Of a DNA stretch of 64,000 nt, positions 1-17,857 are shown one piece after another. The position numbers were made by a program, and so were the translations under genes. Below the pieces are notes generated by a model. The model saw nothing but the letters and a program-made list of their open reading frames with translations. It did not search any database and was not told where the DNA came from. Numbering within the stretch: position 1 is the first letter of the stretch; every line of letters begins with the position of its first letter. Origin of the DNA: Pirellulales bacterium (GTDB lineage: Bacteria > Planctomycetota > Planctomycetia > Pirellulales > PALSA-1355). The stretch is from contig JALHMI010000002.1 in the NCBI GenBank assembly GCA_022844125.1, positions 109,461 through 173,460 of the forward strand. The letters run 5' to 3'.

Positions 1-601
1 AGGCTTTCACCTCGTCGACGATTTGCACCAAACGCTCGTATGTGCCGCGCGCAAAGCCCGCCATCTGGACCAGATCTTGCTTGTCGCTGTACTCGTCCTC
101 GATCAATTCGAGCAGAGGGAGCATGCAGAGTTGGTTGCCCATCTCGTGCGCAAGACGCGCAGCCGAGCGGCCCAGCATCGCGCAGCGATCGGAAGCCACA
201 AGCCGATCCTGCAACGCGATGTTCGACAGCGACATGTCGTAAGCCTCGATCGCGCGGAGCAGGATCGAGAAGACCTCGTCCTGCTCCCACGGCTTCTTGA
301 CGAAATAAAACACCTGTCCCTGATTGATTGCGCTAAGCATCGCTCGGGAATCGGCATAGCCCGTGAGCATCACGCGTTTGGTGTGTGGATACTTTCGGCG
401 CATGATCTCGAACAGCTCGGCGCCGCTCATCTTGGGCATCCGCTGATCGGCAATCACGACCGGAAAGACGTGCTGCTCGAGCAGGTCGAGTGCCGCCTGA
501 CCGCTAGAAGCAGTTACGATATTGAAGTAGTCTTCGAACGTGGCCTGGAATACGACCAGGTTCTCCATCTCGTCGTCGACGTAGAGGATATCTCGCTTCA
601 T
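1..601 (-). CDS. Response-regulator receiver + histidine kinase (REC-HisKA), 3' end outside window
   Basis: Not in the ORF track. Read from ATG at 601: [15 protein letters not shown]...VVIADQRMPKMSG...MLTGY...KKPW (REC), then H-box RLAHEMGNQL. The start overlaps the upstream kinase stop (ATGA). Confidence 0.9.
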   Translation of the reverse strand, partial: MKRDILYVDDEMENLVVFQATFEDYFNIVTASSGQAALDLLEQHVFPVVIADQRMPKMSGAELFEIMRRKYPHTKRVMLTGYADSRAMLSAINQGQVFYFVKKPWEQDEVFSILLRAIEAYDMSLSNIALQDRLVASDRCAMLGRSAARLAHEMGNQLCMLPLLELIEDEYSDKQDLVQMAGFARGTYERLVQIVDEVKA

Positions 602-3600
602 GGGATTGCTCGCTGAAACGCCAATTGTTCCTGAAAGTCGTCATCCGAGGCTGGCGCTTCAGCCACGCAAGGAAAACGAATGACGAATTCCGTGCCCCGC
701 TGAAGCTCGCTCTGACATTCAATCGATCCGCCGAGCTTGGTGATCAAGCCATAGCTCAGTGAGAGTCCTAACCCGGTGCCGACTCCTGGTTCCTTCGTCG
801 TGAAGAACGGATCGAAGATCTTCTGGCGAACGTCGGCCGGGATGCCGCAGCCGGAGTCGCGGATGCGGACGCTCACCCACTCGTCCTCCTGCCGCGTTGT
901 GATTGTGATCGCTCCGTCGTCGGTTATTGCCTGCTGAGCGTTGTTAAGAATATTCATGAACACCTGGTTTAACTGTCCGGCAGGGCCGAACACGCGGCCA
1001 ATCTCGCCATAGTCGCGAACGACTTCAATTCGGTCGCGCAGCGAACTGGAGAGAAGGTTCACGCACATATCGAGCGCCTCGTGCAGGTCGAACACCTGAA
1101 AATCTTCGTTTCCTGGATGCGAGAATGTCTTCAGATCGCTAATGATCCGGGCCGTTCGCGCTGCGCCGGCTTCGACGACGCTGGCGAGCGTCAGAATCTT
1201 CTGGAACGCGGCTTGCACTGCGTCCGGACCGCCCTCGGCAGTCGGCGCCGCCTCGACTAGCTTCTCCACCCGCTTGATGGTGGTGGCCAAGGGACGAATC
1301 CCGTTGTAGACGGCATTGATCGAGTTGTTGATCTCGTGCGCGAGGCCGGCAATCAACTGTCCAAGCGAACTCATCTTTTCAGCCTGGACAAGCTGGCTCT
1401 GCAGATCACGCAGTTCGTTGTAAGCTGTGCGCAGCTCGCGATTTCGCCGGTCGAGATCTTGATGCAGGCCGCGAAGCCGAAGCAGCGAGCGGACGCGCGC
1501 CTGGAGTTCGTTTTCTTCGAACGGCTTGATCAGGTAGTCGTCGGCACCACAGTTTAGACCCCCGATCTTCATCGACAGCTCGGCCTTGGCGGTGAGCATG
1601 ACGAAGGGAATGTGGGCCGTCGCCGAGTCCTCCTTGATCCGCCGACAGAATTCCTGCCCGTCTACGTGCGGCATCATCACGTCCGAGATGATCAGGTCCG
1701 GGGCGACTTGTCGGGCGACTTCGAGTCCTTCCTGACCGTCGCGAGCGAACACAACACGGTACTCGTCGCGCAACATTTCGCCGAGCAGTACGCGGATTTC
1801 GAGCGTGTCGTCAACGACCAGGATTGTGCGCGTAAACGGATTTCCGGTGTCGTGAATCCCGCTCTCGATCGCCGCCTCCGGCTCGATACTGAACTGATCG
1901 AGATCGGCAAAGGCTCGGCCCAGACGCTGCTCGCCAGAGTGGTTCACCGACAGTTGGCCTTGAGGTACCGAGCGTAGCGGCAAGTCAAAATAGAACCGCG
2001 AGCCACGGCCCAGTTCGCTCTTGAGGTGCACTTCGCCGCCGTGCAGTTCAACAAGGTCCTTTACCAGCGACAGCCCCAGGCCCGTTCCACTGAACTCGCG
2101 CGAGCTGGAACCGTCGACCTGCACAAAGCGTTCGAAGACCTTGTCGCGCTGCGTTTCGTCGATGCCAATACCGGTGTCGGTGATCGACACCCAGACACGA
2201 TCGTCCGTACGGTAGGTTTCGACGTGGATGCTGCCGCCGCGGGGCGTGAACTTGATGGCATTCGAAAGCAAGTTACTGACAATCGTATCGACTTTCTCCT
2301 CGTCTGCACCAAAGGGAGCAAGCTCCGGATCGCAGTCGACTGAAAGCACGATGCCGCGCTGTTGGACCAGCGGCGAAGCAGCCTTGGTAAGCGAGTCGAC
2401 CAGTTTGTTAAGGTCCGTGGCGGCCACATTGAGCTTCATCTGCCCGGCCTCGAGCTTGGAGAAGTCGAGCAACCGGTTGATCAAGTCGAGCAGGCGGTAT
2501 CCGTTGAGTCGAACCATCTCCAGCATGTGCTTGGCGGAGGGCGAAAGCTCTTCCGCGTTTCGCTGCAGTAGTCGATCGACAGGCGCCAGGATCATTGTCA
2601 GCGGCGTGCGAAGCTCGTGACTAACGTTGGAGAAGAATTCCGTCTTCAGACGATCGTGCTCGGTGAGCTTGTCGAGCGAACGTTGCAAGCTGCGTCGGCT
2701 GCGTGACAACTGTCGGGTGCGGCGGCGCACCTTACGCTCCAGGTTCGTGTTCAGTTCGCGAATTGTTCGGTCGTTTTCATCGAGTTGTTCGACCATCACA
2801 TTAAATTGACGAGCGAGGATGTCGAGCTCGTCGTTACCGGCAGGGTGCAGGCGCTCACAGAGTTGCCCCTGCTCGACGCGTTTCATCGCCTGCACTAGCT
2901 CGGCCACCCGGGAAGCGACGCTACGGGCGAGCACGACCGACAACATCAGGCCGATCGTCACCGCGGCGATGAAGATCATCATGATGTGCCACTGCATGTT
3001 TGCCAGCGTGGCAGCCTGATTCTGCGGATCGTTGACGATTTCGATGGCGCGCTGGTTGGCGAGCGCGCCAATCATCAGGGCAGTGCCGGCAATCGTGAGT
3101 CCGAAGCAGATGGTCATCCGCGACTGAAGCCGCGAAACGGGAAGCTGGGCATAAGGAATGGGCAAACCTTCGTCGAGGAGGTGCCGGATGATCGGACGCA
3201 TCCAGAACTCAATCGCGAAGAAGGACAGCATCAAGGACGTGGAAACGCCCAGGAATGTGCCGAGGCAGATGTTAATTAGCGTCGCCGAATCGACCTGATC
3301 CCACATATAGAGGATTGGGCAGAGCACGGCGTCGGTGACCAAAGGCACCAGCAGTGCTTCGTGCAGGTGGTGCTTGCCACAAAACTCGACAGCATCACGA
3401 CCCGCCTGCAGCGCACGCGGCAATTCGACGACCCGGCTATGCTGCAAATCGCCGAGCACGCGCCGCAAGCGGCGAGTTTCCCACAATCCCTGCAGGGTGG
3501 TCGCTACGACCGCGGCAATTACGACCACCACCGCCAAGAGCCGGAAGTGCGAAAGGACCTCCGGAGTGACGTGCAAAGTCAGGTCGATGTAATAGATCGT

Positions 3601-3735
3601 CAGCACGCCGCCGATCGAGCCGATCAGGCGGGTAACGATCATCATTACGAGGATGTAATGAGGTCCAAGTTTCTTGAGCAGCGTTGCCAGCATCGTCTGC
3701 CGTTCACTCGGACCCGGCGCAGCACGCCGGGACAC
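598..3735 (-). CDS. Membrane-bound hybrid histidine kinase (about 6 TM-HAMP-HisKA-HATPase-REC-HisKA-HATPase)
   Basis: Hydrophobic N-terminus; HAMP ([16 protein letters not shown]); H-boxes SHELRTPL and AHEINN; N/G boxes [21 protein letters not shown]; REC (ILVVDD, DVMMP, KPF). The start may be 3693. Confidence 0.95.
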
Positions 3736-3744
3736 ATTGATCTG

Positions 3745-6348
3745 CTATTTCAATCCACGACTCTTAAGTTCCATCCGCAGCAACTGGGCCAGTGCCCGAA
3801 GTAGAGCGGCCACGTCGATACTGCGAATTCCGGCCGCCAGGGAGGCGATCGATTGCCGATGGGCTTCCCACTTGAGCAGGAAATACTTTTCGTGTTCGCC
3901 GCGACGAACAGCCGCTTCGATCTTGTCCGGCATCGCGCTGGCCAGGTCGTTCAGGCTCAGATCCCCCTCGCGCAAAGCTCGGGCAAACACCCCGCTGGTA
4001 AAGTCGCGGTCGGCGATCTCTCGCTGCCAGGTACTGACCAGGTTGCCAATTCGCCCCATGTTTTGAGCGTGCCAAATCACTTCGCGCAATCGACCGATCT
4101 CCGCCCGATCGAAGTCGGGCGACCACATCAGGTCCATTGTGGCGAAGCTCATCATTTGCATATTGTGGGGTTGATACATGTCGTGCTCTTGAACGTTCAG
4201 CAGCGCCGGTTGCTTGTTGACCATCAGCGAGTAGGCAAACGTATTGAGGATCTGCTGATGATCGTAGTCGAGCAGTTCGGCGTATTCGGCGTAACCGGGC
4301 GCGCATTGGAGACGGCTTCGGAACGTATCCCATAGGTCGCACGTAAATTGAGCGTACTCTTGCTGTTGGCTCGAAAACGCGCTGAAATCGCGGTCGGCAC
4401 GGCCGGCGATGATACCGGTGAGCGCCGCGAGAAACGCGTCTCCGCCGGCATGATCGGCCACGTCGTCGAGCATGACTCCGTACATCACGGCCAGCAGCTT
4501 CGTATCGCAAAGGTCGCGACGCAGCGCAGGCGCGACGCACGACAGCGTCGTCAGATCGAGTCCGTGCAAGCACCAACGCCACAAATATACGTCACGCGAA
4601 CCCACTCGCCCGTATCGTTCGACCCAGTCGGCAATGAACGGACTGAATTGTGTGGCAAGGACTTGCGCCTGGACGTCGGGTGCGCCGGCCAGCTCCGTGA
4701 GCAGAAGCGCCGGCTCGGGATGTGATTGGCCCTGGCATGTCGCTATGGCCGGAACGATCCGCGCAATCTCAACCTCTTCAATCTCATTCGGCTGGGCCAG
4801 ATGATCGCCCAGCCAGCGGCTACGTCGGACAACCAAGTCCGCCAGCGCTTGATGCACGTCCTTGGCGTCAGTGGTTTCGACAGCGCCAGGCGATACGATC
4901 GTCATATTCGGCGCACTACCGCCGCGGATCAGTTGCTCGCAGACCCAGGCTGAGAAACCACCCGCTTCACAGTCGTCCAGAATCACCGTGTAAGCAGCCT
5001 CGGCAGCCGCGCTCGCGATACACTCGACGTCGAGCGGGTGCGCGAAGCGCGCGTTCACAACTGTGGCACGAATTTGCAGTTGAGCGAGATTCTCGGCCGC
5101 GATCGCTGCGGCAGCACTTGTCGAGCCCCACGCCACGATGGCAACATCTGCGCCTGCGCCAAGGCGTTCTGCTCGGCCGGATTCAACTTCCTCGCCCGAA
5201 GGCCAACTGACCTCTGGCAGGTCCCTCTCGGCCAACCAGACAATCGCCGGAGTGTTCTGCCTGGTACACCACGCAAGCATTTGGCTCAACTCGATGCCGT
5301 CTTTGGGCGCGAGCAGCCTGACCCTCGGCAGCTCACGAAACGCCGACAGTTGCGAGGAATGTGCCAGGGCGTGAGTCTTATTGCCGGCCTCGATGACGAG
5401 TGTGATTCCTAATTCACCGTCGGCGAATAGGCGGCGAATCGCAGGCAGTTGGTCAAACGCCTCGTCGAGCGGCAACAGTAGGCACGGGTGCCGCCCCGCC
5501 GCCGCCAGTGACTGACAACGTGTGAGTAGAACGAACGTATCATCAATCTCACTCTCGGATGAGAAGTGCACGACGCTGGAATCGGCGGCCTCGAGTTCCT
5601 GCAACGATTCAATCGCACACTCGTGGTAGGTTTGCCCGAGCAAGGACGCGCCCGAGTTGGTCGAGTCGGCGGATGAGAAGTGCGGAGGTGGCGGAGCGGA
5701 AGCAGTATCGAAGTACAATACACTGGAATCGCCGCTGTGCTTGACGTCGGCCAGCAGCCCGATCAGATCCTCATCCGTGTCGAGAGAGACCGGCTCCCGA
5801 TATCGAAGGTGAAGCCGCGAGGCCACGCGTTCTGCCAGCTGACGTGGGCCGACCGCTGGCAAACCAGCTTCCCTGACACCGCATATCACCAATAGCAGGC
5901 GTGCATCCTGCTCGAGGGCGGTGCGCATTTCGGGAGAGCCGTTCTCGCTGGCGAGTTCCTGTGCGGTTTGCACGAGCACTAGCCATGGTGGTCCGGCGTC
6001 AACAGCATGCATTGTCGAATCGGACTGCACAGCGCCTGAATGCGCAAAGCCGTGGCCCGAATCGATGCGGAGCTGCGGCTCACTGTTCGTGCCTTGCAGG
6101 CGCCACACCACACGGTCGCTAGCGGCACCGAACGTGCGTTGCAGCGCCGCTGCAAGCCGCCCGACTGCCCGGTTGCCGGTCTCGGCGGCAAGTTCGAAGC
6201 GCGAATCGCTTGAACGAAGCAGCTTCGATGGATGAGAATCGGGTAACGGAACCATGCGCCAGGAATTCGGATCGACCACGTTCGCCATGACGTGCTCAGC
6301 GGCATTGAGATGGGGTAAAACACGCGTGGCGCACTGGTCTCCCCTCAT
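3745..6348 (-). CDS. Fusion of a degenerate DXS/transketolase-like region and a C-terminal class I terpene synthase-like domain
   Basis: The N-terminal ~520 aa track DXS segments (RELPRVRLLAPKDGIELSQML; GADVAIVAWGS; VVNARFAHPLD). The C-terminal ~300 aa carry LDDVAD (4453-4470) and RIGNLVSTWQRE (NSE/DTE-like, 4018-4044). Alternative start 6288. Confidence 0.8.
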   Translation of the reverse strand: MRGDQCATRVLPHLNAAEHVMANVVDPNSWRMVPLPDSHPSKLLRSSDSRFELAAETGNRAVGRLAAALQRTFGAASDRVVWRLQGTNSEPQLRIDSGHGFAHSGAVQSDSTMHAVDAGPPWLVLVQTAQELASENGSPEMRTALEQDARLLLVICGVREAGLPAVGPRQLAERVASRLHLRYREPVSLDTDEDLIGLLADVKHSGDSSVLYFDTASAPPPPHFSSADSTNSGASLLGQTYHECAIESLQELEAADSSVVHFSSESEIDDTFVLLTRCQSLAAAGRHPCLLLPLDEAFDQLPAIRRLFADGELGITLVIEAGNKTHALAHSSQLSAFRELPRVRLLAPKDGIELSQMLAWCTRQNTPAIVWLAERDLPEVSWPSGEEVESGRAERLGAGADVAIVAWGSTSAAAAIAAENLAQLQIRATVVNARFAHPLDVECIASAAAEAAYTVILDDCEAGGFSAWVCEQLIRGGSAPNMTIVSPGAVETTDAKDVHQALADLVVRRSRWLGDHLAQPNEIEEVEIARIVPAIATCQGQSHPEPALLLTELAGAPDVQAQVLATQFSPFIADWVERYGRVGSRDVYLWRWCLHGLDLTTLSCVAPALRRDLCDTKLLAVMYGVMLDDVADHAGGDAFLAALTGIIAGRADRDFSAFSSQQQEYAQFTCDLWDTFRSRLQCAPGYAEYAELLDYDHQQILNTFAYSLMVNKQPALLNVQEHDMYQPHNMQMMSFATMDLMWSPDFDRAEIGRLREVIWHAQNMGRIGNLVSTWQREIADRDFTSGVFARALREGDLSLNDLASAMPDKIEAAVRRGEHEKYFLLKWEAHRQSIASLAAGIRSIDVAALLRALAQLLRMELKSRGLK

Positions 6349-6691
6349 CAGGCGTCACGCGGAACTCGTTGATTATGGTGCAATTGACCAGCGTTTGTCC
6401 ATGAAAATGAGAGCCACTTAGACAGCATTCGAAGAAGCGTGAACGGGTATTTGCAAAGCTGTACGGCCTCTTCCGATTGCACCGCCGATCTGCAGGAATT
6501 TCGCGATGTGTAGATGCACCGATCGCAACGATTGGGTCACTCTTGCAGATCTCATCATGCCGGCATGATTCGCTGCGCGCGAGAAAATATTCCAGTCTGC
6601 AACTAGCATATCGCGCACGGCCGTCAGCGACCTAGATTTGTGTGTCGAACAGCAGGCCACTCACTCGCCCGCCTGAAGGAGCTAGGAAGCA

Positions 6692-7381
6692 ATGGCGCTC
6701 ATGCAGACCACGTGTGATCGATCGTACCCGCTGGTGCATCCAGAATTGGTCGACGCGATGGTGTTTCCAGAACCAACGTCGAGCGAAGCGGAGCCGTTTG
6801 CCGTCGAATTGCGCGAGATCTCGCCGGCGAGCGCGAAGCTGCTGATGGCCGGACCACCGCAACTTCCGAGTCGTTGCCGATTACGGCTCAACAGTTCAAA
6901 GCTGGCGCGTCCGCTGGAGCTAAACGCCGAAATTGGTTGGGCAAGGCCGAATCTGGCCGGCGACTGGCTCGTGGAGTGCGAGTTTCTTGCACGAATGAGC
7001 GAATCGCGATTCGACGCTGTGCTCGCGAGCGGTCTCTTGGAGCGCCGTTCGGCCGTGCGATATCAGACGCGCATTCCAGTACATGTCGAATGGACGCTCG
7101 GAGAGAATCGGCTAAGCGGCCTGGTTCGCGATCTGTCGGAGGGCGGTTTGTGCCTGATGACCAGCATGTCTCCGGCGGGTCGCGTGGTTTACGTGATCGC
7201 CACAGCGCCTAACGGAGAAGCAGCGTTAAAGCTCAAGGTTCGCTGGTCGCTGGGCGTCGGAGAAAAACATCTGGTCGGCTGTCAGTTCATTCGTGGCGAA
7301 GACTTCTATCTGCTCCGCAACTTACAGCCCACGGCGCAGCCGGCGTATAGTGAGTACTCGCGCGCGACGCGGCCAAGCTAG
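6692..7381 (+). CDS. Tandem PilZ-domain protein
   Basis: The second domain has RRSAVR (RxxxR) and DLSEGG (DxSxxG). The first domain is a degenerate copy (EISPAS, EIGWAR, VECEF). Confidence 0.8.
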   Translation: MALMQTTCDRSYPLVHPELVDAMVFPEPTSSEAEPFAVELREISPASAKLLMAGPPQLPSRCRLRLNSSKLARPLELNAEIGWARPNLAGDWLVECEFLARMSESRFDAVLASGLLERRSAVRYQTRIPVHVEWTLGENRLSGLVRDLSEGGLCLMTSMSPAGRVVYVIATAPNGEAALKLKVRWSLGVGEKHLVGCQFIRGEDFYLLRNLQPTAQPAYSEYSRATRPS

Positions 7382-9020: not shown

Positions 9021-11363
9021 TCATCCGGTTGGGAGTGTTCCGCGCATCTGCATCGGTTCGAGCACAATCCACACGCCGAGCACAAACAGCACGAAGATGA
9101 GCATGGCCCAGGGGGTCAGCGCCCGCAGCGGTCGACCGACCCAGGCGTCTTGTGAGGCGATTCGATAGCCCACTGCCAGAGAGGCGAGCAACCCAAGATC
9201 AAGCGCGATGAGCTCAAACTTGATGATCCAATCGGCGACACCTAGACAGCAGGCGTGCTGCCAGTCAGGATCCCCCAGTGCCGCGATGCCGACCAGATCG
9301 CCAATCGCACGCTGCGTGACCGGCAGGATCGTGGCGTAGCTCGTGAGGAAATGAAATCCATGATGGGCCAGCCACATCGCAAAGCCGAGCGGAACGAACG
9401 CATATGCGAAACGGATCACAAGTGCCCCGCAGGACCGCCGTGCCCTGCCCCAACGGCGCGAGATCGCAGCCGCTGAAGCAAGAATCGCTAGCGGACCGAC
9501 GACGAGCGTAAACGAGTAGTAGAACGCGACGACCGCGAACTGAGACATACCCCACCACTCGGCCAGCCGATCTTGGTATTCGACAACGGGTGCGATCATT
9601 CCCGCTGCATTGGCAAATGCGCCAAAGACGAGCAGCCAGATCAAGGCTGCAACATCCGCCCTGTGGCCGAGGCGGCCGATGCCCGAGCGAAACACATCGA
9701 GATGGATCAGCGTGTTACCCGGCGTAACAGCTAGGACGCCAATGTTCTCATGGGGACAAGCTTGCACGCAATCGAGGCAGAACGTGCAGTCAAGATTTCC
9801 AACCTTGCGTGGCTGAAACAGATGCGTCCCGCAGCCCGAGGCTGTTTCTCTGCCGCGAATGCAGTCTTTGGTCCGGCAGGTGGTGCAAGCCTGGGGTTCA
9901 CGAACGCGGACTTCCAGCGGCGAGACGAGCGACTGTACGAAGTTGAATTGACCAATCGGGCAGACATACTTACAAAATGCCGCGTCACGAAACAGCCCAT
10001 CGATCACGAATGCGGCTACGAAGTAAGCCACGGCGATCCAGGCGGTGAGCCAGGGGCTATTCCACAGGGCGAACGCCTCGTAGCTCCACAGAAACGCCGC
10101 GACGAGTGCGACAGCCAGCCACTTGCTGCGCAGAGTTCGCGGCCATGCTCGGCCTCGCGGCAGCCAGTATCCGGCAAATCGCCGCGGTAGCGTGAATGGG
10201 CAAGCCATGCAGAAGAAGTTTCCCCCGACCAGCAGCCCAAACATCACCAGACCGCGCCAATGAATCCAGGGGGCAACGCCAGCCAGATTTGCCGGTCCAA
10301 CTTCGGGGCCGGTAAAGCCGTCCAGCAACACGACAACTGCCGCGATCAGCATGACGGTTTGCAGCACCGGCCGCCCAAAGCGCCAGCGGAGAAATCGCCC
10401 GACAAGCGGAGCTTTCAACAGGTCCCACTGCGGCCTGGGCTTGGCTACCGCGGCAACATGACAATTTGCCGAAGTCAGATGAACGATCGGCAGGGATGAC
10501 AGCGGACGCACACGCTTGGGGTGCCTTGTCCGTCGCTCCGTAGCGGATGAACGCCCGCTGAGCATCCGAACTCCGATCACGAACACCGGCAGCAGAAAAG
10601 CCACCGAGCCGGGCACCCACATCAGCACGCCCGCAAGCTGCTGGTCGGCGAGCGGCGACCAGGAGACGATACTTGGAAGTTCCGTGTAGTGCCGATAGAT
10701 CGGCTCCGACGCGAATGCCAACCAGGCCGAGAGCACTGTGTTCTGTACGTCGGCAAACACGAGGTATGGCAGAACCAGCCACCGCGACCACGGCGGCCGG
10801 CTTGGGTAAGGTTGAATAACGGGGAACCAGAATAGCAGCGACGCAGCAAGAAACGTGGCGTGCTCAGCGATGTGCCAGGTCGGATCGCGAAGCGCGAGTT
10901 CGTAGCTCAGTGGGGCGTGCCAGATCCAGACGGCCGCAGCAAAGATCGGCCAGGCAATAAGCGGATGCGTCAGTAGGGCGAATGCGTCACGCGCGAGCGG
11001 CGCTCGGAGGATTGGAAGCGCCACCGTAGAACGGACCGCACGCGGCAGGCCGCGTAGTACCGGCAGCAGCGGATCACCGACCCACAGGAGCGCGGGCGCC
11101 ACCATCATGAGCAGCATGTGCTGCACCATGTGGACGCTGAGCAGCAGATCGGCAAACACCTCGATTGGCGAAGCCAGGGCCAGAAAGACTGCCGCTATTC
11201 CACCCAGGAAAGCTGCGAGCCTAAGGCCACTCCAGCGAAGCGGATCATGCCGCCGCAACTTGAACCAGCCATGCAAGTAGACGGCTGCCGCGATGGTGAG
11301 CGAAACGCACAGCCAGGGGCTGATGGGCCACGAACGCAGAAAGGCGTCGAACGTGGGATTCAT
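9021..11363 (-). CDS. CtaG-like caa3 oxidase assembly factor fused to a FixG/NapH-like 4Fe-4S membrane domain
   Basis: CtaG motifs HMVQHMLL, WHAP, HIAEH, DQQLAGVLMW, followed by CMACP, CKYVCP, CTTCRTKDC, CTFCLDCVQACP. The start at 11363 (MNPTF) overlaps the cytochrome b stop. Confidence 0.85.
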   Translation of the reverse strand: MNPTFDAFLRSWPISPWLCVSLTIAAAVYLHGWFKLRRHDPLRWSGLRLAAFLGGIAAVFLALASPIEVFADLLLSVHMVQHMLLMMVAPALLWVGDPLLPVLRGLPRAVRSTVALPILRAPLARDAFALLTHPLIAWPIFAAAVWIWHAPLSYELALRDPTWHIAEHATFLAASLLFWFPVIQPYPSRPPWSRWLVLPYLVFADVQNTVLSAWLAFASEPIYRHYTELPSIVSWSPLADQQLAGVLMWVPGSVAFLLPVFVIGVRMLSGRSSATERRTRHPKRVRPLSSLPIVHLTSANCHVAAVAKPRPQWDLLKAPLVGRFLRWRFGRPVLQTVMLIAAVVVLLDGFTGPEVGPANLAGVAPWIHWRGLVMFGLLVGGNFFCMACPFTLPRRFAGYWLPRGRAWPRTLRSKWLAVALVAAFLWSYEAFALWNSPWLTAWIAVAYFVAAFVIDGLFRDAAFCKYVCPIGQFNFVQSLVSPLEVRVREPQACTTCRTKDCIRGRETASGCGTHLFQPRKVGNLDCTFCLDCVQACPHENIGVLAVTPGNTLIHLDVFRSGIGRLGHRADVAALIWLLVFGAFANAAGMIAPVVEYQDRLAEWWGMSQFAVVAFYYSFTLVVGPLAILASAAAISRRWGRARRSCGALVIRFAYAFVPLGFAMWLAHHGFHFLTSYATILPVTQRAIGDLVGIAALGDPDWQHACCLGVADWIIKFELIALDLGLLASLAVGYRIASQDAWVGRPLRALTPWAMLIFVLFVLGVWIVLEPMQMRGTLPTG

Positions 11364-12889
11364 GACGCATCGGGCGGAGGCAATTGCTTCGCGTAAGTGG
11401 GCTCGGCAGCCTGCTGAGCACCAAGCGACGGACCAGGAGTTGCCCAACCCGCGGCCGGCTGCCCCTCGGGTCGCAAGCTAACGAGAAAATCTACGAGCAT
11501 CGACAACTCAGCCGGCGAAATCTGCTTGCCGTAGGCAGGCATCAAACCGCCGCCGGGAGTGCCGTTTGAGACCTGCATGATGAGTTGATCGCGTGTGAGC
11601 CGAGTTCCCACACTAGTGAGGTCGGGACCTCGTCGGCCGCCGACCCCATCCAAGGCGTGGCAATTGCGACAATTCTTGTATTGAAAAACCGATCCACCTA
11701 CGAGCTGGGGGACGGTGGATCGCTTGACGATTTCGACCGGCACCGGATCAGCCGTCCAAGCTTCCATCCTGGGGGACCAGGGGGCGGTAAAGCCGAGATA
11801 GGTGAGCACACCGAGCGTGGTGTAAATCAAGATCACCGAAAGCACGGCGACGGGTCGCCGGCTGGGAGCACGTTCGCCCCGATTGCTGATGAAAGGCACG
11901 GCGAACATCACGCCGATCACGAGCAGCGGAAACACCAGGATGATGAACGTTTCCGCTTCGCGCGGACTCAGTGACAAGAGCGCGAACAACCACAGAAACG
12001 GCCACTCGGGGCGTGGATTCGCCCCGCCCAGCGTCGGGTCGGGCGGATCGGTCGGACCCTTTGGTCCCAGCACCGCCGCGATCACCACAACCACAATTAC
12101 TGCAAGCGCCGAAACAAGTGCGTCGCGCCAAAAGGCGTCGCCAAAGAACGGCACGCCGCGCTTGAGCGACTCGGCATAGTCGCGGTCGTATGTTGCCCGA
12201 TCGACAATTTGCCCTGGCACCGGCGGAGCGCTGACGCCGCAACGGAGCACCAGCCACAAGTGGATCGCCAGAAAGAACAGCAGCGCCCCGGGAATTACGA
12301 AAACATGCAGGGCAAAGAAACGCGAGAGTGCGGCAGCGCCAATCGTTTCGGCGCCAAGCAGCACATGCACCACATCTGGCCCAATGATCGGCACGCGGCC
12401 CGCCATCGAGCCCGCCACCGCGAGTCCCCAGTACGCATCGGGATCCCAGCGCAGAATCTGCCCACTGAAAAACATACCGAGCACGCACAGCAGCAACACC
12501 ACGCCGACGCACCAAGTCAGCTCGCGCGGATACTTATGCCCACCTTGCAGGAACACCTGCGTCATGTGCACCAGCACCATCACGACCATCCCTGAGCCAG
12601 CGTAGTAATGTAATGCTCGCAAAAACCAGCCGAGCGGATGCTCGTAGTCAAGATACAGCAGGCTTTCGTAGGCCTGATCGGCGCTGGGGACGTAGACCAA
12701 CGCCAGTCCAACGCCGCTCAGAATCTGGAGCAGCAAAAACGTGAGCGATGCGCTGCCGAATACGTACCACCAACCCATCGGACTTTCCAGCTCGCGCGGA
12801 ATTGGGTGTAAAACCGTGTGCGCAAGCAGATCTCGCACGCCGAGTCGGCGGTCGATCCAGGTTCCAATTTGCCTGAGGCGCGCATTCAT
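11360..12889 (-). CDS. qcrB: Cytochrome b of a Rieske/cyt b complex with C-terminal cytochrome c domain
   Basis: WYVFGS; heme ligands RALHYY..VHM and FALHVF..IHL; Qo loop PEWP; C-terminal CRNCH...MPAY. Start set at MNARL (12889). Confidence 0.93.
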   Translation of the reverse strand: MNARLRQIGTWIDRRLGVRDLLAHTVLHPIPRELESPMGWWYVFGSASLTFLLLQILSGVGLALVYVPSADQAYESLLYLDYEHPLGWFLRALHYYAGSGMVVMVLVHMTQVFLQGGHKYPRELTWCVGVVLLLCVLGMFFSGQILRWDPDAYWGLAVAGSMAGRVPIIGPDVVHVLLGAETIGAAALSRFFALHVFVIPGALLFFLAIHLWLVLRCGVSAPPVPGQIVDRATYDRDYAESLKRGVPFFGDAFWRDALVSALAVIVVVVIAAVLGPKGPTDPPDPTLGGANPRPEWPFLWLFALLSLSPREAETFIILVFPLLVIGVMFAVPFISNRGERAPSRRPVAVLSVILIYTTLGVLTYLGFTAPWSPRMEAWTADPVPVEIVKRSTVPQLVGGSVFQYKNCRNCHALDGVGGRRGPDLTSVGTRLTRDQLIMQVSNGTPGGGLMPAYGKQISPAELSMLVDFLVSLRPEGQPAAGWATPGPSLGAQQAAEPTYAKQLPPPDAS

Positions 12890-12906
12890 TGTCGTCAATG
12901 GATTGA

Positions 12907-13461
12907 TCAGGTCGGCTGGCGAAGCGTGTCTTGTAAGGTCGGGTAGTGAGGAGCCTGGATCTCGAGTTCGCCCGAGCGAATTCGCCACATGACGTGGAAC
13001 ATACCGCGCGGCGGTGGACCTGAAGCATGTGACCCGTCGGCGTAGTACACACCGCCGTGGCAGGGGCAAAGAAAGAGTTCAGACTGCGGAAACCACGAGA
13101 CCGGACAGCCAAGATGGGCGCAATTGACGCTCAGCACCAGGAACTGCGGATCGCCTTTTTCAACCACCCCCAGCTGTCGCACATAAACGCCGGTTTGCGA
13201 GGTAATCCCGTCCCACGGCAGGCGGAGCGGATTGTCGAACGTCACGAGGCGCGTTTCGTTTAAGGCGAAGCCCGTGGTCGGACCAAGATTGACCCAGGGG
13301 ACTTTCACCCGCCGCTGGCCGACTAGAAACCGCACTCCCGGCACGGCGACGAGCGCGCTCGCAACCAGCCCAGTCACGACCGCGATCCAACCCAGAAAGC
13401 TTCGTCTGGCGGGGTTATCGTTCGGCGGAGCTTGGGATACGTGGTTCATCGCGGTGGTCAT
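12907..13461 (-). CDS. qcrA: Rieske [2Fe-2S] subunit
   Basis: Twin-arginine RRSFL + TM helix; CAHLGC and CPCHGGVY. Start 13461 overlaps the upstream stop. Confidence 0.93.
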   Translation of the reverse strand: MTTAMNHVSQAPPNDNPARRSFLGWIAVVTGLVASALVAVPGVRFLVGQRRVKVPWVNLGPTTGFALNETRLVTFDNPLRLPWDGITSQTGVYVRQLGVVEKGDPQFLVLSVNCAHLGCPVSWFPQSELFLCPCHGGVYYADGSHASGPPPRGMFHVMWRIRSGELEIQAPHYPTLQDTLRQPT

Positions 13462-14225
13462 TCGCCGGGTCCCATGTTCGACGCAACTTGCTGCGGCCGG
13501 CCGCGCCAATGGGCCAAGAGTGCAACCAGGTCGTCAATCTCCTCGGATGTGAGCGGTTTGAAGTCGCTGTCGCGGCCATCGGTCTCGGCAAAATTCGGCA
13601 TGCCGAGGTCCGGTCGGCCTGTGATGATGATCCGCCGCAATGCCTGATTGCTGAACAAGGACAGCAGTGCGGGATCATTGACGCGGCCGGGAGCTGTATC
13701 TTCGTCGCCGCTCCCCTGCCCCGAGTCGCCGTGACAGGCAGCGCAAGCGCTGGCAAAGAGTTTCTCGCCCCGAGCAATCTGTTCGGCCGAAGGCTGTGTG
13801 GAGAGCTCACCTGTGTACGGCGGAGCATCGCCCCCAGCCAAGGTCGGCTTGAAATGAGTTTTCAGACCTTCAGCAAGGATCTGGATCTGCTCAGCGGTCA
13901 GCGTTCCCGACAGTCGCCTATCAAATGCGGGCATCGGCGTCCCCCGCCGGCCGCGGGTGATCACATCGAGCAGCACCTCATCAGGCACAATCGCCAGGAA
14001 CAACGGATCGTTAAGCGGCGGAGCCGGGCCAAGCTTGCCATCAGCACCGTGGCAGCCGCTGCAACTGCGGGCAAACAGTACCTGAAAATCCGTTTGCTCG
14101 CTGGGCAACTTGGGACGGCTTGCGGGATTGGGCTTTCCCGGCATTTGGTCGAGGCAGCCGCCGGTCGTCAACAGGAAAAGCAGGCCGGCAACTCGCCATG
14201 ATTCTAATAGCCTGGCGGAGGTCAT
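13458..14225 (-). CDS. Diheme cytochrome c, probable lipoprotein
   Basis: Lipobox-like TGGC; CSGCH...MPAF and CAACH...MPNF. Confidence 0.9.
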   Translation of the reverse strand: MTSARLLESWRVAGLLFLLTTGGCLDQMPGKPNPASRPKLPSEQTDFQVLFARSCSGCHGADGKLGPAPPLNDPLFLAIVPDEVLLDVITRGRRGTPMPAFDRRLSGTLTAEQIQILAEGLKTHFKPTLAGGDAPPYTGELSTQPSAEQIARGEKLFASACAACHGDSGQGSGDEDTAPGRVNDPALLSLFSNQALRRIIITGRPDLGMPNFAETDGRDSDFKPLTSEEIDDLVALLAHWRGRPQQVASNMGPGE

Positions 14226-15493
14226 GATCTCACTCCTCGGCCAGCGGGAGCGATGGCAATTTCCTCAGAACGCACGACCACTATGGCCGCGGCGATGCCG
14301 AACACGAACTGCGAAACCACGAACCAAGGCCAATCGACTCGCTGCTGCAGAGCCGGATTGACGATGCCCATCATGCTGTAGCTTGCCGCCGTCCACAGCA
14401 GCGGCATCAACATCGCGCCCCAGGCAAACGGGCCGGGAATTCGTCCGAGCCGCGGAAGCAACAGTCCGGCCAGGGCCCCGAACGACAATGAAACGACGGC
14501 ATGCAAGGCGCATGCGGCAGCGAACCAACGGGCGTCGAACTGCTCGAGTTCCGCGATCGAGTAACTTTGCTCGTGCGGCAGAATCATCACGGCCAGGAGA
14601 TTGACCGGATACCAGATCCCATGTCCCGAGGCAAAGCCCCAGAGCATGGCGGGGGCGGCCATCAGGAGGCCGCCCATCGCCCCACCGAACAATCCGGCCA
14701 GAATGCTGCGCCCGGGGCCGGCGGCCATGACTACGGTAGCGGTCGTGATCCCAAACACGAACTGCGAGAGCACAAAATATGGCCAATCGATCAGACTCTG
14801 GACTTCAGGATCGACGATGCTGGTCGCGATGAAACTGGCCGCAGTCCAAGTAAGCGGCGCAAAAAGCGCCGCCCAAGCGAGCGCCCGCGGAATGTGCGGA
14901 AGCGTGGGCAGCAGCACTCCGTAGATGGTGCCGAACATTAATGACACGGCAACGTGAATCATGATACCTGCGGTAAAAAGCACCGGCTGAAAGGCGCGCA
15001 GTTCGGCGTCGCTAAGCTGTTCGACGCCGGGGAGCACGATGCCGGCGAGGAGATTGATCGGCAGCCAGATGCCTTCGCCGCTGAAGAGCCCGTAGAGAAG
15101 TGCCGGAATTGGCATCACCAAGCCGCCAACAATCCCGCCCTTGAGTCCTGCCGAGATGGGCTGCACTTTTTCCGGCAGTCGAAAGCGGTAGCCGGGCATG
15201 CCAGGACGGAGTTGCCCAACGCGCCCAGGCGCGGCAACCACGGGCTTGGGCCGGACATCTTCCGCGGCGAGAGGTTCAATCACGTGCCCTCGGCCGGGCA
15301 GCAGTTGTGCGATCCAATTGGCGAGCCCCGCGATGAAGATCACGAACCCCGCCAGGACGAATGCGAGATGCGTGGCCCAGCCGAAGGCGAGCACGGTGAT
15401 TCCCAACGCGAGCACGAGCGGCGCGGCGGTAGGAGCGGGAAGTTCCACGCCCTCTGCATGCGCATCGTGTTTGCTGGAGAGTTGCTCGGCCAT
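14222..15493 (-). CDS. Polytopic membrane protein with an internal ~145-aa tandem duplication
   Basis: Repeats GIWLPINLLA/GIWYPVNLLA, WTAASF/WTAASY, DWPYFVLSQFVFG/DWPWFVVSQFVFG; lies in the middle of the oxidase operon. Confidence 0.85.
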   Translation of the reverse strand: MAEQLSSKHDAHAEGVELPAPTAAPLVLALGITVLAFGWATHLAFVLAGFVIFIAGLANWIAQLLPGRGHVIEPLAAEDVRPKPVVAAPGRVGQLRPGMPGYRFRLPEKVQPISAGLKGGIVGGLVMPIPALLYGLFSGEGIWLPINLLAGIVLPGVEQLSDAELRAFQPVLFTAGIMIHVAVSLMFGTIYGVLLPTLPHIPRALAWAALFAPLTWTAASFIATSIVDPEVQSLIDWPYFVLSQFVFGITTATVVMAAGPGRSILAGLFGGAMGGLLMAAPAMLWGFASGHGIWYPVNLLAVMILPHEQSYSIAELEQFDARWFAAACALHAVVSLSFGALAGLLLPRLGRIPGPFAWGAMLMPLLWTAASYSMMGIVNPALQQRVDWPWFVVSQFVFGIAAAIVVVRSEEIAIAPAGRGVRS

Positions 15494-15516
15494 CGTTGGC
15501 TATACCAAATTGTTCA

Positions 15517-16146
15517 TTATGCCAGGTAAATCACTGTGAAAACCACGATCCACACCACGTCGACAAAATGCCAGTACCAGGAGACCATGCGAGCGCCAGT
15601 CGACTCTGCCTGTCCAAGGGCCTTGGCCAACGACAACCCGAGGATGATGAGCATCGCCACCACGCCGCCCGAAACGTGCAGAGCATGAAAACCGACGAGC
15701 GTATAGAACGTCGAACCGAACAGATTGCGGCTAATTGTCAAACCGTCGTGAACGACCAGGCCGTACCATTCGTAGGCCGTGCCGGCCAGAAACGCGATTC
15801 CCAGCGTGATGGTGACAGCCCACCAAAGTTTAAAGATCGCGTTCCGGCCGTGCCCCAAGGCATGGGTCGCCAGGTGCACGGTGAAACTGCTCGCCAATAG
15901 AAGCGACGTGGTGGCGACTGCGAGCGGCAGCGAAAGCACCTCGGATGTCGGCCCGGAGAGATTGTCGTTGTGCAACGTCACATAAGCCACGACCAACGTG
16001 CTGAAGAATGCAACTTCAGAGAACAGAAAGCTGAGCATGCCCCATTCGTGCCCGTTCAACGTATGCTCAGGCGCAATGTCGGGGGGAACCGGCAAGGTCG
16101 TCGCCGGTCCGCCCGAAGTCTGGTAGTAGTCGTTCTGCTGATTCAC
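15517..16146 (-). CDS. ctaE: Cytochrome c oxidase subunit III (short, 5-TM type)
   Basis: GMLSFLFSEVAFF, FYTLVGFHALHV, WYWHFVDVVW. GTG start at 16146 inferred. Confidence 0.93.
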   Translation of the reverse strand: MNQQNDYYQTSGGPATTLPVPPDIAPEHTLNGHEWGMLSFLFSEVAFFSTLVVAYVTLHNDNLSGPTSEVLSLPLAVATTSLLLASSFTVHLATHALGHGRNAIFKLWWAVTITLGIAFLAGTAYEWYGLVVHDGLTISRNLFGSTFYTLVGFHALHVSGGVVAMLIILGLSLAKALGQAESTGARMVSWYWHFVDVVWIVVFTVIYLA

Positions 16147-16166
16147 GATTTGCTGTGGTTCTCGCG

Positions 16167-17831
16167 CTACTCGTACTGCCAGTCGGGATCGTCGGGATGC
16201 TTGGTATCCCAAAGCGGCCGGCGGCTATGAACTGTTGGAATCGTTCCGAAATTGTAAGTGGGGGGCGGCGAACTGGTGGTCCATTCGAGCGTCCAGGCGT
16301 CCCAGGGATCGTCGCCTGCGATCTTGCCGTGTCGGTATGAGGAAACGAGGTTGTAGACGAAGATCAGGTAGCTGGGCGCCTGGATCAACGCGCCGATCGT
16401 CGCCAGTTGATTCCAAATCTCCCAGGCGCGATCCGGCTCGTAGCTGAAGATCCGCCGCGGCATGCCGAGCATTCCGGCCACGTGCATCGGCGCGAAGGTT
16501 ACAAAAAATCCGATGTACAGCAGCCAGAACTGCCAATGGGCGAGCCGCTCGCTGAGCATGCGGCCGGTCACCTTGGGATACCAGTAGTGAATGCCGGCAA
16601 ACGTGCCGAATAGCGTGCCGCCGATGAGCACCCAATGGAAGTGCCCGACGACGAAGTAGCTGTCCGTGAGCTGAAAATCGAACGGCGCGAGCGCCAGCAT
16701 GATGCCCGTCAATCCGCCGATGAGAAACATCGACAGGAATCCGAAGCAAAAGAGCATGGGTGAGGCGAACCAGATCCTGCCGCCGAACATCGTGGCCAAC
16801 CAGTTAAAAAACTTGATGCCGGTTGGAATCGAAACCAGCAGACTGGCGACGATGAAGAACAGGTCAACTTGCCGACTCAGACCGACGGCGAACATGTGAT
16901 GCGCCCAGACGCCAAGGCTGATGAAGGCGATGGCCATTGTGGCGGCGGCCATGAACTCGTAGCCAAACAGGACCTTGCGTGAAAAGACGGGAATAATCTC
17001 CGAGACCATGCCAAATACAGGCAGAATCAGGATATACACCTCGGGATGCCCAAAAAACCAGAACAGGTGCTGCCAGAGCAGTGCCGAGCCGCCATTTTGG
17101 ACATCAAAGAAGTGAGCTCCCAGCTCACGGTCGAAAAGCACCATGACGAGTGCGGCGGTCAGAGGCGGCACGGCAATCAGAATCTGCACGCTGGTCCAGA
17201 GCATCGTCCAGGTAAAGAAGGGAATCTTATTGAGCGTCATGCCAGGGGCGCGCATCGCCAGGATGGTGGCCACGAAGTTCATCGCGGCAGTGACCGTGCC
17301 AATGCCAGCGACAATCAGGCCCAGCGCCCAGAAGTCGACGGCGGCGCTGCGAGCAAACGTGGTTTCGGTGAGCGGCGCGTAGGCGAACCAGCCGATGGCC
17401 GGGGCGCCACCTGTCGCCAAACTGAAGTACGTCAGCAGTCCGCCGAACAGCGTAACCCAGAAGCCGAGCGCATTCAGCCGCGGAAAGGCCATGTCGCGAG
17501 CGCCGATCATCAGCGGCACGACGTAGTTGCCGATTCCAATCAGGATCGGCATGCCCACGAAGAAGACCATCGTGGTGCCGTGCATCGTAAAGAGCTGGTT
17601 GAAGACATCCGGCGAAATGACTTCGAGATCGGAGCTCCAGAGCTGAATCCGCATTGCCACGGCTTCGACGCCGCCGATTACCAGGAACACGACCGCCATG
17701 AGCACGTACATGATGCCCACTCGCTTGTGATCGACCGTGGTGGTCCACACGCGTAAGCGCGAAGCCAGATCGACACCGGCCGGGCTGGTCGGGGCGTCCG
17801 CATGAGCAGAAGGGTGATCGGCTAGGGACAT
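16167..17831 (-). CDS. ctaD: Cytochrome c oxidase subunit I (A1 type)
   Basis: DHKRVG, HGTTM, WFFGHPEVY, WAHHMF, VVGHFHW, GMPRR. Start at MSLAD (17831). Confidence 0.97.
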   Translation of the reverse strand: MSLADHPSAHADAPTSPAGVDLASRLRVWTTTVDHKRVGIMYVLMAVVFLVIGGVEAVAMRIQLWSSDLEVISPDVFNQLFTMHGTTMVFFVGMPILIGIGNYVVPLMIGARDMAFPRLNALGFWVTLFGGLLTYFSLATGGAPAIGWFAYAPLTETTFARSAAVDFWALGLIVAGIGTVTAAMNFVATILAMRAPGMTLNKIPFFTWTMLWTSVQILIAVPPLTAALVMVLFDRELGAHFFDVQNGGSALLWQHLFWFFGHPEVYILILPVFGMVSEIIPVFSRKVLFGYEFMAAATMAIAFISLGVWAHHMFAVGLSRQVDLFFIVASLLVSIPTGIKFFNWLATMFGGRIWFASPMLFCFGFLSMFLIGGLTGIMLALAPFDFQLTDSYFVVGHFHWVLIGGTLFGTFAGIHYWYPKVTGRMLSERLAHWQFWLLYIGFFVTFAPMHVAGMLGMPRRIFSYEPDRAWEIWNQLATIGALIQAPSYLIFVYNLVSSYRHGKIAGDDPWDAWTLEWTTSSPPPTYNFGTIPTVHSRRPLWDTKHPDDPDWQYE

Positions 17832-17857
17832 GGACTGACGAGTAAAAGGGAACAGCG

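Follow-up and report, generated by a model that had tools for sequence, protein, structure and literature searches.

[quoted passage not shown] Artificial fusions of this enzyme with terpene synthases have been built by engineers. Among natural proteins, the chimeric prenyltransferase-terpene synthases PvCPS (7s09/8v0f) and variediene synthase (9e2h) unite a terpene synthase with an enzyme from earlier in the pathway in one chain, as does the protein described here. Plants have class-3 DXS-like paralogues (DXS3), which are reported to be without DXS activity or a TPP-binding site and to exist alongside a true DXS (PMC10675008). In our literature search, outside which most subscription journals lay, no DXS-terpene synthase fusion, no PilZ-terpene synthase and no gene cluster of the kind presented below was found.

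The protein is encoded in a stretch of 64,000 nucleotides from a Pirellulales bacterium (the window) and is, on balance, probably a two-module protein, in which a dead DXS pseudoenzyme is kept as a dimerising scaffold for an enzyme of the class I terpene-synthase fold. The first-pass annotation had placed a dead DXS fused to a synthase at 4780-6290. This interval corresponds to residues ~21-523 of the open reading frame (ORF) at 3745-6348 on the minus strand, the N-terminal ~500 aa of which are collinear with DXS, and the fusion does exist: in the same frame, the chain continues into a domain of the class I terpene-synthase fold. The likely start is the ATG at 6288 (residue 21), with homologues beginning MANVVDPNSW, and the likely protein is 847 aa long. 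Its parts are as follows.

3745-6348, minus strand: whole ORF, 867 aa with stop
4789-6288, minus strand: pseudoenzyme region derived from DXS, residues 21-520; no motif for ThDP, catalysis or substrate left
5704-6174, minus strand: what is left of DXS domain I, which binds the ThDP diphosphate, residues ~59-215; shortened, pLDDT 60-85
5179-5631, minus strand: fold like DXS domain II (pyrimidine-binding), residues ~240-390; segment of the cofactor-activating Glu deleted
4879-5178, minus strand: transketolase C-terminal domain (DXS domain III), residues ~391-490; best conserved part
4693-4806, minus strand: disordered linker, residues ~515-552, after the conserved R(C/S)RWL helix that ends the dead DXS region
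3748-4683, minus strand: class I terpene-synthase-fold domain, residues ~556-867
4453-4467, minus strand: DDVAD, the DDxxD metal-binding motif, residues 628-632; D, D and D invariant in 34 of 34 aligned domains
4018-4044, minus strand: NLVSTWQRE, the NSE/DTE metal-binding motif, residues 769-777; N, T and E invariant in 34 of 34

The N-terminal ~500 aa descend from DXS. A profile of the 19 degenerate N-termini, with no intact member in it, matched the DXS of D. radiodurans (6xxg) at 9e-56, profile positions 40-525 spanning residues 46-565 of the chain, and with this profile DXS scored well above transketolase and PDH-E1beta. In Foldseek, the top matches of the full-length model were all DXS, the first being 6xxg at 1.4e-17, and the ORF contains the three-domain DXS/transketolase-like fold in the order of DXS, with domain I reduced. 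Compared with DXS structures (PDB 6xxg, 2o1x, 2o1s), the domain order and fold are the same and the region is collinear from the I..P.D motif to the C-terminal helix, whereas its domain I is ~100 residues shorter and the copy is fused to another enzyme. Against TIGR00204, the single sequence scores 56.6 bits, far below the cut-off for DXS membership (465.95), and matches at profile positions 427-571 alone. The transketolase C-terminal domain had been singled out as the best-kept part, and so it is: PF02780 (1.6e-15, residues 391-488) is the only Pfam family over its cut-off in the ORF, mean top-residue frequency within the degenerate clade is 0.59 there and 0.40-0.51 elsewhere, and the pLDDT of the domain is ~85-93.

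The catalytic apparatus has gone. Set against the same DXS structures, the window's copy is without GDG and NDN, the DVGHQ His, the IAEQH Glu, FLQR, DRAG..THH and RYPRG; in other words, seven of the seven motif segments checked are lost. The string AALQRTFGAASDRVVWRLQG aligns with ...DRLIWD(T/V)GHQ of the genome's own DXS and of the intact fused copies, with WRLQG in place of DVGHQ in the alignment and the His lost, as first read. The reported absence of the GDG motif holds as well, QTA standing at the GDG position and CGV at the NDN position, and both motifs are absent from all 19 dead copies. The IAEQH segment, previously called degenerate, is in fact deleted, in the window and in a 95%-identical relative (L005); EAGNKT--HALAHS replaces DRAG..G.DG.THH, which is indeed degenerate, the FLQR position reads EAFDQ and the R(Y/T)PRG segment reads WLAER. 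The Glu of IAEQH, which activates the cofactor, and the Arg of FLQR and of RYPRG are active-site residues of DXS. The genome's own DXS spells motif segments differently (GHAGSS, CESH, RYPK). H49, D427 and H431 in E. coli numbering belong to the DXS active-site network (PMC12633525). Judged by its motif loss and TIGR00204 score, the region should be incapable of acting as a ThDP enzyme, in agreement with the annotation of a catalytically dead DXS.

A separate, true dxs exists in the same genome and scores 683.4 bits against TIGR00204. An assembly artefact, which the first-pass annotation had kept in view, is ruled out: separate assemblies yield 19 full-length dead copies that have the fusion. 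It is supported further by two contigs that cross the domain junction, an identical one of 965 nt (run X1, covering 4393-5335) and one of 9436 nt that is ~96% identical (run X3, covering 3745-5138), either of which runs may be the window's own source.

The C-terminal ~310 aa form a divergent class I terpene-synthase fold (model pLDDT 91). VIA Z is 20.2 to both 7e4o and 6oh6, bacterial class I di-/sesquiterpene synthases, and among the 117 chains at VIA Z of at least 8, terpene synthases and prenyltransferases lead; Foldseek with the domain model found 7zrn at 8e-5. At the sequence level, a search of the PDB with the domain gave no match at E up to 10, and the window's domain matched no Pfam family, PF19086 and PF03936 included; weak matches to PF19086, all under the cut-off, came from 6 of the 34 family members (best E 1.7e-5), the window's not among them. 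Several Arg residues are also invariant across the 34 aligned domains, and mean column identity across phyla is 53%. The domain, presumably catalytic, is the family's conserved core and apparently works as a terpene-synthase-like enzyme. To our knowledge, no product or enzyme is known for this family. The domain is rare, being found at 1e-20 in 5 of 401 genomes of a Planctomycetota sample, the window's genome (G000) included.

What precedes this domain varies among relatives. Of 37 ORFs scanned, seven have complete DXP_synthase_N, Transket_pyr and Transketolase_C domains (1e-85 to 1e-94) ahead of the same C-terminal domain; in five, from other taxa, a PilZ domain fused to the synthase domain takes the N-terminal position; and standalone synthases also occur. 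The presence of a near-intact DXS at the same position indicates that the dead copy has decayed from a bifunctional enzyme or parallels one. The near-intact fused DXS of the L035 type carries Asn where His49 would stand. The dead copies form one clade (SH-aLRT 99 on the synthase tree and 94 on the DXS-domain tree), and on the DXS-domain tree this clade, the intact fused copies and the true DXS form a polytomy.

Such a history could have left a decaying relic, that is, a dead DXS without function of its own, the remnant of a bifunctional enzyme, which is tolerated, heading for deletion and constrained only insofar as a misfolded N-terminus of 500 aa would hurt the attached synthase. The gradient of decay fits this idea, since a local DXS HMM gives 891-1045 bits to the 7 complete intact fused copies, 80-192 to the 19 dead ones and 92, among the lowest, to the window's. 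Lineages also keep different pieces, two loci retaining the domain I remnant alone (L059 and L071) and two domain III alone (L012 and L073), and the sister clade of 24 loci is without any N-terminal module; because other lineages have deleted different parts or all of the dead region, the synthase core can do without it. The model has three disordered segments within the region or at its end, 86-118 (in the domain I remnant), 217-235 and 515-552, as a relic might. On the contrary, all 19 full-length dead copies maintain an open frame of 500-840 aa ahead of the synthase, 13 columns are invariant among dead copies that are 20-48% identical to the window's (L005, 94% identical, set aside), and domains II and III are modelled with confidence. 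Residues 21-520 differ from those of L005 by 29.5 nonsynonymous and 42.5 synonymous changes, giving a dN/dS of 0.22 (Fisher p 2e-9 against neutrality), an estimate from the one unsaturated pair, dS being >1.2 or undefined in the other three. The dN/dS of the synthase domain is 0.09, and the nonsynonymous-to-synonymous ratio does not differ significantly between the dead and synthase parts (p 0.14). The first-pass annotation had set against its own proposal the pairing of intact relatives with neutral evolution of this copy: near-intact relatives do exist, in the seven ORFs mentioned above, and neutrality is not what the substitutions show. Lost catalytic residues and purifying selection, the latter from one pair, together characterise a pseudoenzyme, and we regard a functionless relic as rather unlikely.

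Retention of the dead module as a dimerising scaffold, the reading that we prefer, is consistent with the structure models. The domain II/III core (residues 240-490) has a pLDDT of 85-93, and a homodimer of residues 59-514 was modelled with an ipSAE of 0.65 against 0.00 for the best control, a score that could reflect likeness to solved DXS dimers. The homodimer runs have at least 82% of contacts in common with partner pLDDT of at least 68, and the model thereby passes a mark to which 20 of 30 proteins solved as pairs come up, as does 1 of 23 solved as single chains. The modelled interface is symmetric, involves residues 298-339 and 437-484 and has most of its contacts in domain III; a twofold dimer like that of DXS (6xxg, 2o1x, 2o1s) is predicted for the dead region. 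One objection is that conservation at this predicted interface does not exceed that of the remaining residues of 240-490 (entropy 1.90 vs 1.77, permutation p 0.79), a result that speaks for a relic. The proposal that the dead copy dimerises the synthase is therefore favoured by the model score, a property of the model, and finds no echo in extra conservation of the interface.

The genes around the ORF bear on what such a protein might do. Three of them, within the window, are listed here.

6692-7381, plus strand: PilZ-domain protein, 229 aa, divergently transcribed; RxxxR and DxSxxG kept
598-3735, minus strand: hybrid histidine kinase, 1045 aa, beginning 9 nt past the synthase stop
2-601, minus strand: REC-HATPase protein, truncated where the window begins (its L005 counterpart has 388 aa)

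The hybrid kinase is composed, in order, of ~6 hydrophobic segments, HAMP, HisKA, HATPase, REC and a second GHKL domain. Next after the REC-HATPase gene is an extra IspH (G000:C2:108015-108845, minus strand), followed in L005 by a FadL/TodX porin. Among 79 related loci, many of them cut by contig ends, 62 have the kinase, 43 IspH and 36 FadL; a FAD-dependent oxidoreductase is co-clustered in 10, and a prenyl-diphosphate synthase was found in none of the 79. The PilZ gene adjoins the synthase gene in 11 loci, all with a dead DXS and the window included, and in the intact-DXS clade a GGDEF-like gene lies directly upstream in 5 loci. The cluster carries its own first (DXS) and last (IspH) steps of the MEP pathway.

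These neighbours, together with the feedback regulation of DXS by IPP and DMAPP, are the attraction of a second alternative, in which the dead DXS gates the synthase, either by sensing IPP, DMAPP or HMBPP or by docking a partner, be it true DXS in a heterodimer, the PilZ protein next door or the kinases. The PilZ domain, a c-di-GMP receptor that takes the place of DXS in the five fusions, the PilZ neighbours and the GGDEF-like genes suggest that the N-terminal position has repeatedly been used for regulatory input. However, the ThDP pocket, the reported site of IPP/DMAPP competition, is destroyed in the dead copy, and the PilZ fusions have no DXS part, which suggests that PilZ acts on the synthase domain and not on the DXS part; we consider a sensing or docking role distinctly unlikely. 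That the C-terminal domain is no enzyme at all but a sensor, which binds prenyl diphosphates and signals to the co-transcribed kinases within a protein that is wholly a signalling adaptor, is highly improbable. In its favour, synteny with the two kinases is tight (a 9-nt gap to the hybrid kinase, 62 of 79 loci), 53% column identity is unusually high for a terpene synthase and the window's domain has no Pfam match; against it, the two metal-binding motifs are invariant, as are several Arg residues, catalytic cyclases are the best fold matches, the co-clustered oxidoreductase is a typical tailoring enzyme and a dedicated DXS and IspH fit precursor supply.

Under the scaffold reading, the first module (residues ~21-520) would come from a second, cluster-dedicated DXS once fused to the synthase. 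In the window's lineage it has lost ThDP binding and catalysis, its folded domain II/III core being held by purifying selection, and the second module (residues ~556-867), in which both Mg-diphosphate motifs are intact, is a divergent and presumably catalytic representative of the class I terpene-synthase fold. The dead module would give the synthase no more precursor; it may act instead as a non-catalytic dimerisation or scaffold module, through the DXS-type twofold interface of domains II and III. The synthase, the membrane hybrid histidine kinase, the REC-kinase, the extra IspH and the FadL porin probably form a conserved operon, adjoined by the PilZ c-di-GMP receptor; the operon would serve either to produce a small hydrophobic isoprenoid or to respond to one. 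We may speculate further that these genes and the c-di-GMP parts constitute an undescribed system that makes and/or senses such a compound, possibly a C5 hemiterpene (an isoprene-like volatile), the dedicated DXS having here been turned from a catalyst into a dimerisation module with a regulatory task, which links the synthase to the status of the MEP pathway or of c-di-GMP; in this full form the idea is unlikely to be right.

The near-intact and dead versions of the same fusion, together with the deletion variants, provide a ready natural series for asking why such a pseudoenzyme domain persists. That the synthase is constantly accompanied by two kinases, c-di-GMP parts, an additional IspH and a FadL porin points to signalling by isoprenoids, or to the production of volatiles, in the Planctomycetota. 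Family members are also carried by Maioricimonas sp. JC845 and Polyangium spp., both of them cultured, which makes this testable.

Placed beside the known bacterial class I terpene synthases (7e4o, pimarane-type; 6oh6, LrdC; 7zrn, 10-epi-cubebol synthase; PF19086), the family has the same alpha-helical fold (VIA Z 19.7-20.2, rmsd 3.1-3.7 over 251-269 residues) and likewise carries DDxxD and NSE/DTE, but identity is only 9-14%, and the family has an invariant EHDxYxxHNM segment of its own, is always C-terminal to variable N-terminal modules and is set in a kinase/IspH/FadL operon. As in plants with DXS3, the window's genome pairs a non-catalytic DXS paralogue with a true DXS; DXS3 differs in being a stand-alone plant protein that is far less degenerate and has no downstream enzyme fused to it. 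In the chimeric prenyltransferase-terpene synthases (7s09/8v0f, 9e2h), the non-cyclase domain is, according to the entry titles, the oligomeric core. There the partner is an active prenyltransferase, which performs the step right before the synthase, whereas the partner in the window's protein is the first enzyme of the MEP pathway, dead in this lineage.

The fusion gene is encoded on the minus strand, with a conserved series of genes behind it and a divergent gene ahead of it (L005 is the closest related locus).

Features of the fusion locus (window coordinates unless a contig or locus is named)
3745-6348, minus: fusion ORF, 867 aa
598-3735, minus: hybrid kinase, 1045 aa, with ~6 hydrophobic segments, HAMP, HisKA, HATPase, REC and a second GHKL
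2-601, after the hybrid kinase, truncated by the window start, minus: REC-HATPase protein, 388 aa in L005
C2:108015-108845, on the window's contig just beyond the window: second IspH copy of this genome, the other being on contig C13
L005, after REC-HATPase: IspH/LytB (8.6e-90), then FadL/TodX porin; cluster at L005:10614-17431
6692-7381, plus, transcribed away from the synthase gene: PilZ protein carrying RxxxR and DxSxxG

The protein likely starts at the ATG at 6288, because its homologues begin with MANVVDPNSW, which is residue 21 of the window's ORF. This start agrees with the end coordinate of the first-pass annotation, whose span of 4780-6290 corresponds to residues ~21-523. That annotation had read a catalytically dead DXS and a synthase in one chain, and the fusion is real: it is carried by independent assemblies, and contigs from two public runs, each belonging to a different study, cross the domain junction; one of these runs may be the window's own source. 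The window's genome holds one copy of the synthase.

The N-terminal region had been described as following DXS along its length with the catalytic signatures lost, and this is borne out in every particular, as is the view that the transketolase C-terminal domain is its best kept part. When the region is searched as a single sequence, only its tail is recognisable: Pfam places Transketolase_C over residues 391-488 (1.6e-15), with the end of Transket_pyr below threshold, and TIGR00204 (dxs) gives 56.6 bits over profile positions 427-571 of 616, far under its cut-off of 465.95. Collinearity with DXS over the whole dead region emerges at the profile level. A profile of the 19 degenerate N-terminal regions, built without any intact member, matched D. 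radiodurans DXS at 9e-56 (profile 40-525, chain 46-565), with transketolase and PDH-E1beta ranked below every DXS entry; a broader alignment including one intact member reached 1.8e-63, and DXS structures were the first matches of the full-length AlphaFold model (6xxg, 1.4e-17). An alignment of the dead region to the genome's own DXS and the intact fused copies of relatives showed that every motif segment checked is lost from the window.

DXS motif segments and their counterparts in the window (alignment)
D(T/V)GHQ: WRLQG
GHxxT: deleted
GDG: QTA
NDN: CGV
IAEQH-type: deleted, also in L005
FLQR: EAFDQ
DRAG..G.DG.THH: EAGNKT--HALAHS
RYP(R/K): WLAER

Beyond the segments of H49, D427 and H431, these motifs have the roles generally known for DXS. 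The active-site network of E. coli DXPS includes H49, D427 and H431 (PMC12633525).

Despite these losses, the dead copy is not evolving neutrally in the one pair of sequences that is unsaturated, the window and L005 (95% identical; the other three pairs have dS > 1.2 or undefined). By the Nei-Gojobori method, residues 21-520 have a dN/dS of 0.22 (29.5 nonsynonymous and 42.5 synonymous changes; p 2e-9 against neutrality), as compared with 0.09 for the synthase domain, 0.59 for the linker, 0.04 for the hybrid kinase and 0.06 for the PilZ protein, and the nonsynonymous/synonymous ratio does not differ significantly between the dead region and the synthase domain of this pair (p 0.14). A separate intact dxs is present on another contig at C11:220019-221866 (683 bits), beside a prenyl-diphosphate synthase gene. 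Stand-alone dxs genes (640-744 bits) also occur in four of the five genomes with an intact fusion, the fifth being a 2.8-Mb, apparently incomplete assembly; the fused DXS is therefore always a second, cluster-dedicated copy.

Residues ~556-867 are modelled as a domain with the class I terpene-synthase fold. Its metal motifs are intact, it falls outside the curated families, and its activity is putative. The model (pLDDT 91) matches bacterial class I terpene synthases across the whole domain (VIA Z 20.2 to 7e4o and 6oh6, and 19.7-19.9 to 9hqd, 7ofl and 7zrn; Foldseek top match 7zrn, 8e-5), at just 9-14% identity. A sequence search with the domain matched no PDB chain, and the window's domain matched no Pfam family; PF19086 was reached weakly by six of 34 relatives. 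DDVAD (628-632), N769, T773 and E777 are invariant in all 34 aligned domains.

A word-indexed search returned 42 related proteins, and a full HMM search 761 clusters (50% identity) at E up to 0.001 and 456 at E up to 1e-30; the synthase domain extends to the C-terminus in almost every one of the best 150 of the 761, which are ~210-950 aa long. In one-genome-per-species contigs, 123 candidate stretches yielded 89 relatives, and the set retained comprises 79 loci, nearly all from uncultured Planctomycetota, with a few from Verrucomicrobiota, proteobacterial MAGs, Polyangium and Maioricimonas. The family is rare, being found in five of the 401 genomes sampled from the phylum, the window's own included. 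The same fusion was found in relatives, in both degenerate and near-intact versions.

Architectures of the synthase family
(i) Stand-alone, ~350 aa: 30 ORFs < 400 aa
(ii) Near-intact DXS + synthase, 912-936 aa: 7 of 37 scanned ORFs (PF13292, 1e-85 to 1e-94)
(iii) Degenerate DXS + synthase: 19 full-length ORFs, the window among them
(iv) PilZ + synthase, 450-490 aa: 5 of 37 scanned ORFs
(v) Shorter forms: domain I remnant only (L059, L071) or domain III only (L012, L073)

The remnant in L059 and L071 ends ..GP.GG...L..LK....P.LLHLR, and the transketolase C-terminal domain is the sole dead-DXS piece left in L012 and L073; lineages keep different fragments. Scores against a local DXS HMM form a gradient, from 891-1045 bits in the seven complete near-intact fusions (L017, L020, L027, L035, L038, L043 and L069; an eighth, L042, is cut by its contig) to 80-192 in the dead copies, the window being among the lowest at 92. 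The "intact" copies exceed the TIGR00204 cut-off (605-737 bits summed), and all six examined are missing a ~40-residue loop of the genome's own stand-alone DXS. In five of the six (L017, L020, L035, L038 and L043) Asn replaces the His of DVGHQ, which corresponds to His49 in the active-site network of E. coli DXPS, and the activity of these DVGNQ copies may already be altered; L069 reads DVSHG, and the protein entry P0034 has His at this position.

In a quick, unrooted IQ-TREE phylogeny of 73 synthase-domain rows, the 19 dead copies all belong to a single clade of 30 rows (SH-aLRT 99). The same clade holds forms that are shorter or cut by their contigs, as well as L048 (contig-cut) and L070, two ORFs < 400 aa. 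Its sister clade is made up of 24 forms that stand alone. Another clade (99) unites seven intact-DXS fusions; L069 is placed elsewhere, close to the PilZ fusions. When DXS domains II-III are used for the tree, the dead copies once more group together (94), and dead, intact fused and true DXS form a polytomy. This history is most simply explained by an ancient fusion involving a duplicated dxs, with a single loss of catalysis and several deletions thereafter. L069 is possibly a second, independent fusion, because its DXS groups with true DXS (96, domains II-III). After L005, the locus closest to the window in its dead-DXS region and most neighbour genes is L009 (also P0006 and P0013), with identities of 79% for PilZ, 86% for REC-kinase, 88% for IspH and 76% for the hybrid kinase (81% in L006). 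The synthase domain of L009 shows just 43% identity, belongs to a different subclade and ends in ..GLI instead of ..GLK, which suggests a domain swap by recombination.

Behind the synthase lies a conserved operon of hybrid membrane kinase (starting 9 nt after the synthase stop), REC-HATPase, second IspH and FadL/TodX outer-membrane channel. The IspH on C2 retains the three Cys segments, which hold the Fe-S cysteines, and the H..H.E segment, with their generally known roles. By tblastn across the 79 loci, many of which stop at contig ends, the kinase occurs in at least 62, IspH in at least 43, FadL in at least 36 and the PilZ neighbour in at least 11; the genome's two prenyl-diphosphate synthases as queries (E up to 1e-5) found no such gene in these loci. 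Two more genes occur with the intact-DXS clade, one for an FAD-dependent oxidoreductase (10 loci) and, immediately upstream, a GGDEF-like one (five loci). In L035 this weak GGDEF-like gene (6082-7002) overlaps the fusion gene's start, and the oxidoreductase (9767-11077) comes after, an arrangement also seen in L017, L020, L027, L038, L043 and L044; in L018, L059 and L080 the oxidoreductase lies upstream.

The divergent PilZ gene is found in the window and 10 other dead-DXS loci, and PilZ is fused to the synthase N-terminus in proteobacterial loci, Polyangium and one planctomycete locus (L050, L062, L065, L068, L081 and L082), with RxxxR and (D/N)xSxxG retained in both forms. Because the neighbour's domain occurs fused to the synthase in other phyla, there is a Rosetta-stone hint that c-di-GMP may act on the synthase. 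An 80-aa ORF between the two genes (6418-6660, minus) has no family, is matched by tblastn only in L005 among the 79 loci and is probably not a gene. The respiratory block at 9021-18901 (minus; 808-aa Caa3_CtaG protein, cytochrome b/c fusion, dihaem-type cytochrome c, COX3, COX1 and COX2) appears ordinary and is absent from most related loci.

As for the dead region, the first-pass annotation had offered sensing of IPP/DMAPP, dimerisation of the synthase or docking on real DXS. Among these three, we infer, dimerisation or scaffolding has the best support. The model is disordered at residues 1-58, 86-118, 217-235 and 515-552, with a weak domain I remnant at 120-215 and a confident part at 240-490. 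Residues 59-514 are predicted to form a homodimer (ipSAE 0.65 vs 0.00 for the best of three controls; contacts in common between runs at least 82%, partner pLDDT at least 68), a mark attained by 20 of 30 proteins whose structures were solved as pairs and one of 23 solved as single chains. The predicted interface is symmetric (residues 298-339 and 437-484) and no better conserved than other residues of the domain. Because DXS dimers are solved, the prediction may show mere likeness to them. The dead region may instead be a tolerated relic, because other lineages have trimmed it in different ways.

No DXS-terpene synthase fusion, PilZ-terpene synthase or such cluster was described in the literature searched in full text, which included few subscription journals. 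The closest known analogue of the dead region is the plant class-3 DXS-like protein, which is reported to be inactive, without a TPP site and of unknown role (PMC10675008). The closest analogue of the architecture, from the structure entries matched by the synthase model, is the fungal prenyltransferase-cyclase chimera. The kinds involved, a pseudoenzyme domain and a chimeric terpene synthase, are known, and the surrounding cluster may be a new system.
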